From Clostridia bacterium (GTDB lineage: Bacteria; Bacillota; Clostridia; Christensenellales; Borkfalkiaceae), in assembly GCA_017536305.1 (NCBI GenBank), contig JAFXHR010000020.1:5088-69087 (forward strand): 64,000 nt of DNA, written 5' to 3'. Both the position numbers and the translations under genes were made by a program. The notes below the pieces were generated by a model. That model ran no database searches. It worked only from the letters and a program-made list of their open reading frames with translations, and was not told the origin of the DNA. Positions 16,215-61,804 of the stretch are shown here, piece after piece (position 1 is the first letter of the stretch; each line of letters begins with the position of its first letter).

Positions 16215-16291
<77 letters not shown>

Positions 16292-31402: not shown

Positions 31403-31406
31403 AAGC

Positions 31407-31597
31407 AAAACGACGTATCTACGTCGCATTTCGGCGTTGCCTTTCAGTTACGTGCTATTGCACGCGCCTTCAAGGCTCCTTGAACTGCTCGTATCTCCGT
31501 CGTTTTACCAGCATTAGTGTAATGTCATTGCGAACGAGTGTAACGAGTGTGGCAATCTCGTATAAATAATTCCGCAACGAATTGCAAAGCAATTCAC
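31407..31597 (+). repeat. Mosaic palindromic intergenic element, copy 1 (modules H-B1-C-mini D)
   Basis: H is CGACGTA-TC-TACGTCG at 31411-31426. B1 has hairpins CGTGC-TATT-GCACG and TTCAAGG-CT-CCTTGAA and ends CTCGTATCTCCGTCG+TTTTACCAG. C is GTCATTGCGA..(AACGAGTGT x2)..GTGGCAATC. It closes with GAATTGC-AAA-GCAATTC. Confidence 0.85.
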
Positions 31598-31648
31598 TTA
31601 CAACAAAAACAAAAAAATTTTTTATATATACTTTGGAGGTATAAAATT

Positions 31649-31942: not shown

Positions 31943-31950
31943 TCGATAGA

Positions 31951-32093
31951 AAACGACGTATATACGTCGCAATACAGCGTTGTCGCTCGCTTACGTACTA
32001 TCGGTACGCGCGCTCGCGACGCCTTGTCTTGCTCGTATCTACGCCGTTTTACCAAGATTGTCATTGCGAACGAGCAACGCGAGTGTGGCAATC
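31951..32093 (+). repeat. Mosaic palindromic intergenic element, copy 2 (modules H-B2-C)
   Basis: H is CGACGTA-TA-TACGTCG from 31954. B2 is ATACAGCGTTGTCGCTCGCTTACGTACTATCGGTACGCGCGCTCGCGACGCCTTGTCTTG plus CTCGTATCTACGCCGTTTTACCA. C ends GTGGCAATC at 32093. Confidence 0.85.
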
Positions 32094-36110: not shown

Positions 36111-36364
36111 AAACGACGTATTTACGTCGCATTTCTTCGTCGCCTTTCAGTTACGTACTATCGGTACGCGCCTTCAAGGCTCCTTGAACTGCTTGTATCT
36201 ACGCCGTTTTACCAGCGTTAGCGTAATGTCATTGCGAGGAGCGTAGCGACGTGGCAATCGCATATAAATTTTACCGCAACGAATTGCGTAGAAATTCATT
36301 TCACGCGCGTAGCGCAATTCACGACGACAGTCAATTCACGGCACAAGCCCAACGGGCATTTCAC
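36111..36364 (+). repeat. Mosaic palindromic intergenic element, copy 3 (modules H-B1-C-D)
   Basis: H is CGACGTA-TT-TACGTCG from 36114, and B1 and C match copy 1. D is GAATT-GCGTAGA-AATTC, ATTTCAC, gcgcgtagcgc, AATTCAC (36316), gacgacagtc, AATTCAC (36333), ggcacaagcccaacgggc, ATTTCAC (36358). Confidence 0.85.
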
Positions 36365-38627: not shown

Positions 38628-39251
38628 ATGAAAGTATTACTTGTCAACGGCAGTCCGCACGAAAAGGGCTGTATCTACACCGCGCTTTTGGAAGTGTCGA
38701 AAACCTTAAACGAGCAGGGTATCGAAACGGAAATTTACCAGCTCGGCAAAGAACCGATTGCAGGCTGTTTGGGCTGTGGCGCGTGTGCAAAGCTTGGTAA
38801 ATGCGTGACGGAAGATAAGGTATCGGAATTTATCGAAAAAGCGAAAACGGCGGACGGTTTTATTTTCGGCTCGCCCGTATATTACGCGTCGCCGGCAGGC
38901 TCGCTTATCTGTTTTATGAACCGCGTATTTTACAGCGGTGGCAAATACCTTGCCTATAAACCGGCGTCGGCGGTGGTAAGTAGCCGTCGTGCAGGTTCGA
39001 CGACCACCTTTGACGCGCTCAATAAATATTTCACCATTAATAATATGCCGATAGTACCGTCCAACTACTGGAACGAAGTACACGGCGCGAACGGTAAAGG
39101 CGACGACGTTTTACGCGACGAAGAAGGTTTACAAACCATGCGCCTTATCGGGAACAATATGGCGTGGCTTTTACAATGCCTTGCCCTTGGCAAAGAAAAG
39201 GGTATTGCGCCTAAGACTGAGCTTAAAATCCGCACCAACTTCATTTCATAA
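38628..39251 (+). CDS. Flavodoxin-fold NAD(P)H-dependent FMN reductase / iron-sulfur flavoprotein-like
   Basis: MKVLLVNGSPHEKGC... (FMN_red-type N-terminus) and a Cys cluster CLGCGACAKLGKC. Confidence 0.7.
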   Translation: MKVLLVNGSPHEKGCIYTALLEVSKTLNEQGIETEIYQLGKEPIAGCLGCGACAKLGKCVTEDKVSEFIEKAKTADGFIFGSPVYYASPAGSLICFMNRVFYSGGKYLAYKPASAVVSSRRAGSTTTFDALNKYFTINNMPIVPSNYWNEVHGANGKGDDVLRDEEGLQTMRLIGNNMAWLLQCLALGKEKGIAPKTELKIRTNFIS

Positions 39252-39510
39252 AAACGACGTATCTACGTCGCAATACAGCTAAAAAAGTGAATTGCAAGCG
39301 TTGCTTGCGTGAATTTTCGCTATGCTCAATGAATTGCGTGGCAAAGCCACGCGTGAATTGCAACGCAAAGCGTTGCGTTATTGTATTATTTCCACAACGC
39401 CACCAAAGGTGGCAATTCATGAAAAACACAGTTTTTCAATTCACGCGTACAAAGTACGCAATTCACGACGGCAAAGCCGTCATTCACGGCATAAGCCCTA
39501 TCGTGGCAAC
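39252..39510 (+). repeat. Mosaic palindromic intergenic element, copy 4 (modules H-D, full dyad array)
   Basis: H is CGACGTA-TC-TACGTCG at 39255-39270. GTGAATT at 39287, 39309 and 39353 (GAATT at 39331). AATTCAT at 39414, AATTCAC at 39438 and 39460, ATTCAC at 39482. Each interval holds a different perfect 6-7-bp hairpin, mostly with AAA loops. Confidence 0.9.
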
Positions 39511-39518
39511 AACATAAC

Positions 39519-39555
39519 AAACCGCCCTTTGCCGTTATGGCAAAGGGCGGTTTTA
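39519..39555. terminator. Bidirectional rho-independent terminator
   Basis: AAACCGCCCTTTGCC-GTTA-TGGCAAAGGGCGGTTTT between the flavoprotein/repeat and the convergent ytxH-like gene. Confidence 0.85.
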
Positions 39556-43404: not shown

Positions 43405-43420
43405 TAAAAACAAAGAATAT

Positions 43421-43544
43421 GCTACGCAATACGGCGTCAAACTTGCGTTTTCTCTCGCTCGTTTACCTATGTAAATCTCCCGTCGAGAAATCCGCGTTTT
43501 CCTTGTCTTGCTTGCATCTTGCTTTGTTTTTGCAAAACGACGTA
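43421..43544 (+). repeat. Degenerate relative of the mosaic element (B2-like body, split head palindrome)
   Basis: GCTACGCAATACGGCGT (compare TACGTCGCAATACAGCGT), internal GTAAATCTCCCGTCG, CCTTGTCTTGCT, and ATCTTGCTTTGTTTTT (identical to 48216-48231). Ends AAAACGACGTA at 43534-43544. Confidence 0.55.
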
Positions 43545-45886: not shown

Positions 45887-48031
45887 ATGGAAACAACGTT
45901 AGATAAAATTAAACAACTGTATACGGCGGAAGATAGAGAGAAACTTATCAAAGCCTACGACTATGCCAAAGAGGCGCACGCAAACCAAAAGCGCGCGTCG
46001 GGCGAGCCGTACTTTATTCACCCCTGCGAAGTAGCGAATATTTTAATGGACTTGGGGCTGGATTGTGCCTGCGTGGTGTCCGCGCTTTTGCACGACGTCA
46101 TTGAAGATACCGCCTCTACGGAAGAAGATATACGCCGAGAATTTGGGGAAGAAGTATTACAGCTTGTGAGCGGTGTTACCAAGCTTGAAAAAATCGTATT
46201 CAAATCGCAGGAAGACGCGGACGCGGAAAATTTCCGTAAAATTTTCGTCGCGATGGCAAAGGACGTGCGCGTCATTATTATTAAATTAGCGGACAGATTG
46301 CACAATATGCGTTCGCTCAATTTCCTTTCGCACGAGCGCCAACAAAGAATGGCAAGCGAAACGCTGGAAATTTACGCACCCTTAGCCGGTCGGCTCGGTA
46401 TTTCGCAAATCAAGTGCGAGCTGGAAGATTTATGCTTAAAATATCTCGACCCCGAGTCGTACGAATATTTATTATACAATATCCGCGAACGCCTTTCCGA
46501 GCGCAAGGATTTCGTCGCGCAAATCGTGGAAGAAATCAAAGCGCTTATGGACAAGGACGGCGTAAAAGGGGAAGTGTTCGGACGACCCAAGCATTTTTAT
46601 TCCATCTATAAAAAGATGAAAAACAAGGGTAAAACGCTCGACCAAATCTACGACTTAACGGCGGTGCGCGTCATTGTCAAGGACGTGCGCGAGTGCTATA
46701 CCGTGCTTGGTGAAATCCACGAAAAATGGAAACCTATCCCTGGTCGCATTAAAGACTATATCGCAACCCCCAAGCCCAACAAATATCAATCCTTGCATAC
46801 GACGGTTATGACCAAATACGGTCAGCCGTTTGAAATCCAAATCCGCACCGAAGAAATGCATAAAATCGCGGAATTCGGTATCGCGGCGCACTGGAAATAT
46901 AAGGAAGGCAGAACGGATACCGAGCAGGGCGAAATTGAAAATAAGCTTGCTTGGCTTAGAGAAGTGATGGAATGGCAGGGCGACTTAAAGGACTCCAAGG
47001 AGTTCATCAGCGCGCTCAAAACGGAGCTTTACAGCCACGAATTGCTCGTCTTTACGCCCCGCGGAAAGGTCATATCCCTGCCCCCCGAGGCAACCCCCGT
47101 AGACTTTGCTTACGCCATTCACTCGGAAGTAGGCAACCGTTGCACGGGCGCGCGCGTCAATTCAAAAATCGTACCGCTTACGACGACATTAGAAGTGGGG
47201 GACGTCGTGGAAATTATCACGTCGCCCAACTCCAAAGGCCCGTCGCGCGACTGGTTAAAATTCATTAAATCGTCCAGCGCAAAAGCGAAGATTAAACAAT
47301 TCTATAAAAACGAATTAAAGGACGAAAATATCCGTATCGGTCAAATCAAGCTGGACGAAGAGGCGAAAAAACGCGGATTTTCCTTATCTACTTTATTGAC
47401 CGCGGATAGCTTTAAGCGCATTTCCGAGCGGTTCTCGTTCGGCGCGGAAGAAGAAATGTTCGCGGCGGTGGGTTACGGCTCTATCTCCGTTAATCAAATT
47501 TTATTCAAGCTGATTGATTATTACCGCAAGGAAACACCGCTTGCCTTAGATATCAAAGCGGGCGATACCAACCGCTCGCTCGGCGGTGTGCTCGTGAACG
47601 GCCAAGCGGGTATGCTCGTCAAATTTGCCGGCTGTTGTTCGCCCGTCCCTGGGGACGAAATCGTGGGTTATACTTCGCGTGGTCGCGGAGTGGTGATTCA
47701 CCGCCACGATTGTCCGAATATCAAGGGTATAGATGGAGCGCGCTTGCTCCCTGCGTCGTGGAGAGTGGAGGCAGGTACGAAACAACGCTACAACGCGAAC
47801 GTTGCCATTCGCGCCACCGAGCAAGGCTCGGCACTTTCCGTTTTATCACAGGTAGTTGCCGACTTAAAACTCTCTATCACGTCGGTCAACGGTCGTATTG
47901 ATAAGAACGGCGACGCAATTTTAGAGGCGTCCATCTCCCTAACGGACATAGCGGAAGTGGATATGCTTATCAAAAAGATGCAAGCGGATAAGAGGATATA
48001 CGAAGTCCACCGCATCACGTCTTTAAGCTAA
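45887..48031 (+). CDS. relA: Bifunctional (p)ppGpp synthetase/hydrolase (RSH)
   Basis: HD hydrolase LLHDVIEDT, synthetase GRPKHFYSIYKKM...YQSLHT, and TGS and ACT-like C-terminal domains. Confidence 0.95.
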   Translation: METTLDKIKQLYTAEDREKLIKAYDYAKEAHANQKRASGEPYFIHPCEVANILMDLGLDCACVVSALLHDVIEDTASTEEDIRREFGEEVLQLVSGVTKLEKIVFKSQEDADAENFRKIFVAMAKDVRVIIIKLADRLHNMRSLNFLSHERQQRMASETLEIYAPLAGRLGISQIKCELEDLCLKYLDPESYEYLLYNIRERLSERKDFVAQIVEEIKALMDKDGVKGEVFGRPKHFYSIYKKMKNKGKTLDQIYDLTAVRVIVKDVRECYTVLGEIHEKWKPIPGRIKDYIATPKPNKYQSLHTTVMTKYGQPFEIQIRTEEMHKIAEFGIAAHWKYKEGRTDTEQGEIENKLAWLREVMEWQGDLKDSKEFISALKTELYSHELLVFTPRGKVISLPPEATPVDFAYAIHSEVGNRCTGARVNSKIVPLTTTLEVGDVVEIITSPNSKGPSRDWLKFIKSSSAKAKIKQFYKNELKDENIRIGQIKLDEEAKKRGFSLSTLLTADSFKRISERFSFGAEEEMFAAVGYGSISVNQILFKLIDYYRKETPLALDIKAGDTNRSLGGVLVNGQAGMLVKFAGCCSPVPGDEIVGYTSRGRGVVIHRHDCPNIKGIDGARLLPASWRVEAGTKQRYNANVAIRATEQGSALSVLSQVVADLKLSITSVNGRIDKNGDAILEASISLTDIAEVDMLIKKMQADKRIYEVHRITSLS

Positions 48032-48260
48032 ACGACGTATCTACGTCGCAATACAGCGTTGTCGCTCGCTTACGTACTAACGGTACGCGCGCTCGCGACG
48101 CCTTGTCTTGCTCGTATCTCCGCCGTTTTACCAGCTATATCGGTACGCACGCGCCTTCAAGGCTCCTTGAACTGCTCGTATCTCCGCCGTTTTGCCAGTA
48201 TTTCGGTAAAATTGTATCTTGCTTTGTTTTTATCGCTCGGCTCCAAGTTTATAAATAACC
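48031..48260 (+). repeat. Mosaic palindromic intergenic element, copy 5 (modules H-B2-partial B1-tail)
   Basis: H is CGACGTA-TC-TACGTCG from 48033, 1 nt after the relA stop. B2 matches copy 2, followed by a partial B1. The 15-mer CTCGTATCTCCGCCG occurs at 48111-48125 and 48175-48189. Confidence 0.85.
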
Positions 48261-61567: not shown

Positions 61568-61780
61568 GAAACGCGTATATACGTCGCAAAAAAATGAATT
61601 GCAAGCAAAGCTTGCGTGAATTTTCGTGCATACTCAATGAATTGCGTGGCAAAGCCACGCGTGAAATGCAACGCAAAGCGTTGCGTTGTGGAATATTACA
61701 ACAACGCCACCGTAGGTGGCAATTCATGCCCAGCGGGCAATTCACGCGCGTAGCGCAATTCACGACGACAGTCAATTCAC
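61568..61780 (+). repeat. Mosaic palindromic intergenic element, copy 6 (degenerate H plus full dyad D array)
   Basis: ACGCGTATATACGTCGC head. ATGAATT at 61594, GTGAATT at 61616, GAATT at 61639, GTGAAAT at 61661. AATTCAT at 61721 and AATTCAC at 61739, 61757 and 61774. Cassettes are gcccagcgggc, gcgcgtagcgc and gacgacagtc. Confidence 0.9.
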
Positions 61781-61804
61781 TATTTTATCTAAAGGAGCAA
61801 TATT

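Follow-up and report, generated by a model that had tools for sequence, protein, structure and literature searches.

The intergenic spacers of a 64,000-nt stretch of DNA from a Clostridia bacterium (contig JAFXHR010000020.1; the whole stretch is called the window below) hold copies of a repeated element whose main unit, which we call the rod, is in most copies one long imperfect hairpin by prediction. We found that the left terminus of the rod sits on the TAA with which the upstream gene ends, that the copies run in the sense of that gene, and that their pairing is kept by compensatory change. Within genomes the copies multiply or are homogenised, and between strains of one species they are gained, lost and swapped. 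We consider it probable that the element is a lineage-specific, non-autonomous and proliferating family of palindromic repeats, organised in the manner of REP dimers, REPINs, BIMEs and MITEs.

A preliminary description of the window had reported a mosaic in the spacer between ffh and rpsP, composed of a perfect palindrome (H), a stretch with inner hairpins (B1) that ends in a degenerate H, a module named C and a terminal hairpin, and had placed related copies at six further sites. All of these features are present where they had been reported. When up to three mismatches were allowed, H gave 11 matches in the window (palindromes being scored on both strands), compared with 0.65 ± 0.88 expected, and none of 100 shuffled sequences got to 11. 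H lies at 31411, 31954, 36114, 39255 and 48033, always in the same sense, and a variant that is one base shorter lies at 61572. A repeat finder recovered the shared modules as families D1, D2, D3, D5, D7, D12 and D18, and the degenerate copy that had been noted at 43421 was confirmed by an nhmmer profile search (43408-43519). All window copies are on the + strand.

The estimate of six or seven members proved far too small. Using the pattern AAACGACGTATNTACGTCGCA, a scan of one genome per species gave 46 further loci from about 23 species known as metagenome-assembled genomes (MAGs), revealing that the element is lineage-wide. The carriers are Candidatus Scatosoma spp. and their relatives, and MAGs labelled 'Clostridia bacterium', from the guts of human, roe deer, sheep and others. 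A profile search of the window and the 46 loci (392 kb) found 81 non-overlapping matches, which lie on one strand only within each locus. One MAG contributed 11 loci on 10 contigs and another 10 loci on 10 contigs. The element thus shows the feature by which REPs and REPINs are recognised, a high-copy extragenic palindromic unit near the 3' ends of open reading frames (ORFs).

The rod and its paired ends

Alignment of the sequence behind H revealed two size classes, of 100 nt and about 120 nt, both finishing in conserved CTTGCTCGTATCTCCGCCGTTTT; the rod body ranges from 100 to 124 nt. The termini read T-A(3-7)-CGNCG-TATA-TACG on the left and CGTA-TCTC-CGNCG-T(3-5)-A on the right, which gives terminal inverted repeats of about 17-19 nt, a feature of the MITE type. 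In most copies the predicted hairpin reaches from the A-run through the T-run. H, B1 and the degenerate H with its T-run, which the preliminary description had parsed as separate modules, are the left arm, the interior and the right arm of a single rod, whose termini covary and whose inner stems compensate. In copy 1, in the ffh-rpsP spacer, H is followed by the inner hairpins CGTGC-TATT-GCACG and TTCAAGG-CT-CCTTGAA and then by CTCGTATCTCCGTCG with the T-run at 31503-31506, so that the degenerate H plus TTTTACCAG finishes at 31506; the predicted fold is a single hairpin of -36.1 kcal/mol (z -5.5). For the window copies the predicted energies lie between -30 and -41 kcal/mol and correspond, when compared with shuffles, to z-scores of -2.1 to -5.5; the rods overall have z-scores of -2.1 to -7.0. 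The two arms are unequal, the left being a perfect 7+2+7 palindrome and the right degenerate and non-palindromic.

The pairing is supported by compensatory change. Across 25 long rod copies, 88% of the cells were paired and both sides had changed in 17 of 43 pairs (93 cells). None of 500 shuffles attained this level of pairing and compensation, and controls in which the partner was slid along were 34-55% paired. A marker pair covaries with the subtype, reading GCAATAC/GTCTTGC in one and GCATTTC/GAACTGC in the other. The terminal helix is invariant in the 25-copy set, its left side having been set by the search pattern. Where the ends differ, it covaries: CGACG/CGCCG is replaced by CGAAG/CTTCG, CGGAG/CTCCG, TGACG/CGCCA, CGTTG/CAACA or CGCG/CGCG, and TACG/CGTA by TGCG/CGCA. 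Left ends were predicted to pair at -12.4 kcal/mol with their own right ends and at -10.5 kcal/mol with the right ends of other copies, a difference reached in none of 10000 permutations. The rod thus has two inverted arms within one larger hairpin that evolves by compensation, although its right arm alone forms no palindrome.

A sister subfamily (AAAAACAAAG...CTTTGTTTTT), which we call H-less, has lost the local palindrome and kept a near-perfect basal helix, the position at the stop codon and the orientation. Its rods occur at 43406-43531 in the window and in the loci L012, L013, L032 and L127-L131. These rods reveal that H as a local palindrome is dispensable. Since they keep the basal helix, what the family conserves is the long-range pairing, and H is particular to the main subfamily.

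We also compared the two strands. In 54 of 56 copies the reverse complement is predicted to be stabler than the sense strand by about 9 kcal/mol, and the variable interior shows the same preference in 46 of 54. The sense strand is 60% pyrimidine and carries U.C, A.C and C.C mismatches. G.U pairs number 162 in the sense and 130 in the antisense strand while the antisense folds are the stabler ones, and we therefore name neither strand as the selected one.

Stop codons, orientation and transcription

The stop codon of the upstream gene on the same strand was TAA in all 48 scorable copies, against a background TAA use of 76% in these loci. In 40 of the 48 the H stem begins 1-5 nt past the stop, and there the stop codon consists of a T and the first two A of the A-run. 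The preliminary description had noted that H begins 1-11 nt past a + strand stop and is preceded by 3-5 A, which is borne out in the window copies, where the stop is TAA; in copy 1, AAGC sits between the TAA of ffh and the A-run. The same rule, a place beside a same-strand stop and an orientation in gene sense, holds in the 46 independent loci of other genomes, where nearly every first copy starts between -2 and +8 nt of a same-strand ORF end. The sole discordant copy, L007, is truncated; its two neighbours run in one direction and it lies antisense to them. The gene that follows a copy is co-directional in about two-thirds of cases and convergent in about one-third, and no shared theme links the genes that precede the copies, namely ffh, rpsP, relA/spoT and those for an HtrA-like protease, an FMN reductase and a class II aminoacyl-tRNA synthetase.

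A T stands before the A-run in 56 of 68 copies and an A after the T-run in 44 of 68, and the lengths of both runs vary. The ends thus have the form T-A(n)...T(n)-A, with the stop codon inside the basal helix. These flanks recall a classical MITE, an internally deleted insertion sequence (IS) with ends of 17-19 nt that a DDE transposase would bind. Inserting at TA, such an element would survive where the TA of a TAA was hit, its leading A restoring the stop. We regard this origin as quite unlikely. The terminal inverted repeats, the length of 100-124 bp, the T and A at the outer ends, the constant TAA and the presence/absence polymorphism between strains described below agree with it. However, the flanking TA is inconstant and the run lengths vary; the ends covary for pairing and do not preserve a fixed protein-binding sequence; and the interior is under a pairing constraint that a transposase-bound MITE would not need. 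Symmetric targeting of TA would moreover give both orientations at stops, and one is seen. No parent or autonomous IS with rod ends (termini TAAAACGNCG) was found in about 770 kb of DNA sampled around the elements from many genomes (4311 ORFs).

Orientation also matters for transcription. The minus strand of H had been read as a hairpin followed by a T-run, and a terminator consensus scan scores it in this way, with flagged sites at 31427, 31970 and 39271; on the + strand the scan picked out none of the rod 3' ends. Read antisense, H runs directly into U(3-7), the canonical form of an intrinsic terminator. In the sense direction T(3-5) adjoins the long-range rod only, and the stem beside the U-run, with 2+2 bp and an A.C mismatch before an internal loop, is weak. 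Sense termination should be weak, because the hairpin at the T-run forms only by pairing across 100 nt, for which the local H competes. In an antisense transcript H is made last and the U(3-7) follows at once, so the main subfamily should let the transcript of its own gene pass and stop antisense ones. In the sense mRNA, the hairpin 1-5 nt past the stop would be expected to form a REP-like barrier to 3'-5' exonucleases, and it might also brake terminating ribosomes. REPs are said, after Newbury in 1987, to shield upstream mRNA from 3' exonucleases, and Liang, Rudd and Deutscher reportedly observed in 2015 that REPs within about 15 nt of a stop codon slow terminating ribosomes. Insertions in the opposite orientation would be polar in co-directional gene strings and may be removed by selection, which would help to fix the orientation.

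Copying, mosaics and strain turnover

For most copies the nearest relative is a paralogue elsewhere in the same genome, with an identity of 0.92-0.99 in the variable interior. This pattern persists where another species has a copy at the orthologous site; in the window, the interior of rod copy 2 (31951) is 98% identical to that of the copy at 48030. Orthologous sites are often free of the element. Among 80 rpsP loci from metagenomes (RpsP identity 67-98%), about 12 carry it in either spacer flanking rpsP, and the closest relative, L047, has merely TAA-AAACGACGTATAGAACGTTTTT at that place.

We then examined 11 sequences, the window and 10 further contigs that encode an identical RpsP, in which the nucleotide identity of ffh, rpsP and KH-rimM is 97-100%, placing them in one species. 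MAG GCA_045587905.1 belongs to this species as well. The ffh-rpsP spacer of these strains is 186, 187, 227, 246/247 or 330 nt long and the rpsP-KH spacer 154, 183, 233, 253, 257/258 or 306 nt. At least five or six module architectures occur in the same two spacers, and they differ by whole modules. These insertions, deletions and swaps within one spacer rule out protein coding, in line with the earlier view that the family is non-coding. In one case an ATAC-type rod stands in place of a TTTC-type rod behind an identical H. Locus L127 has an additional long H-less rod at the stop codon; in L128 and L129, H and the CA behind it lead directly into CGTTTTACC, the 79-nt rod body being absent; and in L132-L136 a D array (see below) is fused directly behind GCAATAG and the right arm is gone. 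Insertion polymorphism between related genomes, by which MITEs are recognised, is thus present. H had been proposed as a module boundary, and because exchange occurs directly after H+CA we conclude that it acts as a stable anchor or recombination boundary. Such gain, loss and swapping is that of a proliferating, recombining repeat and not of a fixed regulatory site.

Rods form mosaics with C and D, which are two further families of hairpin repeats (Table 1). The C module (GTCATTGCGA..GGCAATC, with about 18-20 nt between) is a separate family, which occurs without rods and in both orientations in L050 (upstream of rpsP), L030 and L032. Neither Rfam nor the literature gave a match to it; it looks similar to a widespread repeat from which spurious small ORFs arise in many anaerobes. 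In D arrays one short hairpin follows another, and the 5-7 bp stems vary from unit to unit and are always complementary, the loops are of AAA type and each unit bears the tag GTGAATT or AATTCAC. Besides the three stretches in the window they occur in L056 and L132-L136, and they can stand for the rod body directly behind an anchor.

Table 1. Rods, anchors and C and D modules located in the window
Feature	Position	Strand	Remarks
ffh stop codon TAA	31400-31402	+	4 nt upstream of copy 1 A-run; ffh = 439 aa
Rod copy 1, ffh-rpsP spacer	31407-31507	+	100-nt class, TTTC subtype
Copy 1 A-run	31407-31410	+	
Copy 1 H, CGACGTA-TC-TACGTCG	31411-31426	+	Perfect palindrome; 8 nt past ffh stop, AAAA before
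Copy 1 right arm CTGCTCGTATCTCCGTCG	T-run 31503-31506, A at 31507	+	
C module, ffh-rpsP spacer, GTCATTGCGA..GGCAATC	31524-31557	+	Holds AACGAGTGT twice; family D12
Single D-type unit	31579-31597	+	GAATTGC-AAA-GCAATTC (31579-31595) with AATTCAC tag; family D5
Rod copy 2, rpsP-KH spacer	31950-32051	+	100-nt class, ATAC subtype; H 31954-31969
C module, second copy	32060-32093	+	Family D12
Rod copy 3, 3' of HtrA-like protease gene	36111-36211	+	TTTC subtype
C module after rod copy 3	36228-36259	+	
D units after rod copy 3	36270-36345	+	
Anchor only	39249-39279	+	TAA fused to A-run, H (39255-39270), then CAATACAGC
D array in place of rod body, right behind the 39249 anchor	~39280-39480	+	
Long rod, H-less subfamily	43406-43531	+	AAAAACAAAGAATATGCTACG ... 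GCATCTTGCTTTGTTTTT
Truncated H AAAACGACGTA	43534-43544	+	Directly 3' of long H-less rod
Rod copy behind relA/spoT	48029-48130	+	Stop T48029-A48031 = T and first two A of A-run
Partial second rod after relA/spoT rod	~48141-48193	+	No H
Anchor variant AAACGCGTATATACGTCGCA	61569-61588	+	3' of class II aminoacyl-tRNA synthetase gene
D array directly behind the 61569 anchor variant	61589-61785	+	

The strain comparison also bears on a reading in which the rod is a dedicated cis-acting RNA, a long-stem terminator or attenuator between cistrons, possibly coupled to translation, and its repetition is due to selection and not to mobility. The basal helix would have the TAA and the A-run as its 5' side; by blocking closure of this helix, a ribosome at the stop would allow read-through, and an untranslated message would terminate. 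Such a device would account for the T(3-5) at the rod end, the stop codon in the basal helix in 40 of 48 copies, the mutual exclusion of the local H hairpin and the long-range helix (like that of anti-terminator and terminator), the pairing maintained by compensatory change and the occupation of identical gene junctions in several species. We still hold it to be improbable. Most orthologous rpsP loci, that of the closest relative included, lack the element; strains swap a rod for another subtype, or for a D array that leaves the left arm alone; and near-identical paralogues within a genome point to copying rather than to independent selection. The lack of a common theme among the preceding genes and the weak stem beside the U-run likewise speak against it.

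For a proliferating repeat, the conserved ends of about 25 nt could supply the homology for gene conversion and module exchange between copies, and this would explain the genome-specific populations and the subtype swaps behind a constant anchor. Colonisation of new sites would need a trans-acting enzyme, for which a single-strand-specific transposase of HUH/Y1 type or a DDE transposase would be a candidate. A bolder version, which we think unlikely, is that a strand-specific mobilisation or recombination system plants hairpin cassettes at TAA stops in one orientation and swaps their interiors behind the anchor (A-run, 16-mer and CA), and that the host could use them as one-way transcription insulators. 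If so, the insulators would be permeable to the gene's own transcript and would terminate antisense or convergent transcripts exactly at the stop. A mobiliser or one-way termination, if found, would make it testable how a repeat targets stop codons in a single orientation.

Several observations weigh against a proliferating repeat whose orientation is set by its genes, or fit other explanations equally. The element strand has a positive GC skew in 37 of 41 loci, the gene-antisense copy L007 among them, so a replication-linked single-strand mechanism may set the orientation, and loci of 8 kb cannot separate the two causes. The H-less subfamily is nearly symmetric, yet its orientation is unchanged; selection against an antisense H terminator is therefore not the whole explanation of orientation. 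Positions after secA, prfB and relA are common to several species, which a conserved function would fit as well. A phmmer search of the 4311 ORFs for a Y1/HUH transposase, which the preliminary description had suggested as a mobiliser, found no homologue, with YafM and IS608 TnpA sequences as queries; this negative is weak, because the DNA came from many genomes and a single-copy gene would mostly be missed. No clean target-site duplication and no truly empty site could be defined, and all effects of the rods at the RNA level are ones that we infer.

Empty sites were sought by several routes. Searches via the MBL-fold and FMN-reductase neighbours gave no clean empty site, the contigs found ending at repeats, and none came from a look-up of the KH protein, where the rpsP-KH spacer was occupied in all (183-306 nt). 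A solo H with a T-run, as an empty target might appear, was found at none of 53 H sites in the loci. The only form resembling a solo H is that of L128 and L129, which fits an empty site and a deletion alike.

The skew raises a further alternative, namely that the rod is a true REPIN moved by a RAYT, a REP-associated Y1 transposase, on the single-stranded top strand, its orientation following replication and not transcription. The long two-arm hairpin with compensatory evolution, the genome-specific populations, the skew itself (followed even by L007) and the extragenic position beside stop codons, as in REPs (PMC3733652), would suit such an element. It would, however, be expected to bear a GTAG or CGTC tag, which is absent; its second REP would be a palindrome, which the right arm is not; and no Y1 transposase was found in the sampled DNA. 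RAYT groups associated with REPINs, moreover, reportedly occur in Proteobacteria (Bertels, 2017). We judge this explanation very unlikely and retain that of a proliferating palindromic family with REP-dimer-like, BIME-like and MITE-like traits.

Further observations concern individual loci. The truncated H at 43534-43544 lies just 5' of the ribosome-binding site of the next gene and resembles what a second rod would leave behind on being deleted (compare L127). At 39519-39553, in the long spacer shared with a D array, a perfect 15-bp hairpin with A and T runs on its two sides forms a classical bidirectional terminator. In one conspecific strain (L131, 2890-3045) the rod after rpsP is followed by a different gene of 343 aa in place of the KH-domain gene, indicating a rearrangement at the element. 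In L048 (about 230-430, ffh-rpsP spacer) a partial element is flanked by direct repeats of the final 25 nt of ffh (aaacttcgcttacctttctaaaaaa). Two contigs of MAG JAFUJR (L016 and L017) are identical over at least 300 nt of gene end and element, from either a duplicated region or assembly redundancy. In other samples of the same species (L137-L140), contigs stop 40-180 nt from the genes that flank the element.

Relation to known repeat families

Candidate identities outside the small repeats were rejected. Viral contigs contain no exact match to the H pattern, and blastn found nothing in plasmid and phage collections, which speaks against a phage or plasmid origin. A DNA uptake sequence is ruled out, as H was seen only in intergenic DNA, beside stop codons and in one orientation. 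An integron attC site is ruled out as well: the ends are TAAAACG and CGTTTTAC, not RYYYAAC/GTTRRRY, and the flanks are housekeeping genes in conserved order. An Rfam scan of the window gave no match at gathering score except one tRNA gene (16215-16288), and by E-value the spacer gave only a chance U2 match (E = 2.2). A full-text literature search with the element's own sequence strings returned no paper.

In the window and beyond, the family itself, its positional rule, the minus-strand terminator reading and the role of H as a boundary have stood, and the division into modules and the family size of the preliminary description have given way. Its statement that the element matches no REP or BIME holds for the sequence and for the GTAG/CGTC tags. 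It does not hold for the organisation, which is like that of REP dimers and BIMEs.

The element is a member of the small palindromic intergenic repeats and fits no named family, its unusual traits being the fusion to TAA, the single orientation and the unequal arms. Work on REP, BIME and MITE-type repeats has been almost confined to Proteobacteria and a few pathogens, and uncultured gut Clostridia have an abundant, fast-evolving counterpart, distinctive in its TAA-fused left end, its fixed gene orientation and ends that are kept paired by compensatory change. There are practical consequences. The repeat fragments short-read assemblies, breaking them at housekeeping loci, and creates spurious ORFs; it also offers strain-level markers, since spacer architecture varies where the flanking genes are 97-100% identical.

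Bidirectional intrinsic terminators resemble the rod at its ends only, where an A-run, a hairpin and a T-run lie directly 3' of a stop. Unlike them, the rod has a branched, mismatched stem of 100-120 nt and homologous copies at many loci, lies within the conserved gene string ffh-rpsP-KH-rimM and varies in presence from strain to strain. MITEs and the ERIC, Correia/NEMIS, RUP and BOX repeats share with it a length of 100-130 bp, terminal inverted repeats, A/T-rich ends and strain insertion polymorphism, and they are transcribed with their neighbours as a long RNA hairpin, as the rod would be. These families insert in both orientations and, where this is known, have a defined TA duplication or a parent IS. 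The rod differs from them in its fixed orientation, the left end fused to TAA and the pairing constraint on its interior, and no parent IS was found for it.

The closest likeness is to REP dimers, REPINs and BIMEs, which are multi-copy and extragenic, with two inverted arms in one hairpin and compensatory changes. REPs lie less than 20 bp from the end of the upstream ORF and their termini often supply its stop codon, and REP superfamilies have a conserved unpaired GTAG or CGTC tag at the end of the stem-loop (PMC3733652). Rods differ from REPs in the absence of this tag, the hairpin flanks being the A-run and CA (GTAG is seen solely on the minus strand of TC-loop variants, within the loop region), and also in their unequal arms, their strict gene orientation, the lack of a RAYT in the DNA sampled and their uncultured Clostridia hosts. 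As in REPs and BIMEs, a terminus a few nucleotides from the upstream ORF end supplies the stop, and the neighbouring genes are co-directional or convergent. As in BIMEs, the copies form strain-variable mosaics with other short motifs and genome-specific sequence populations.

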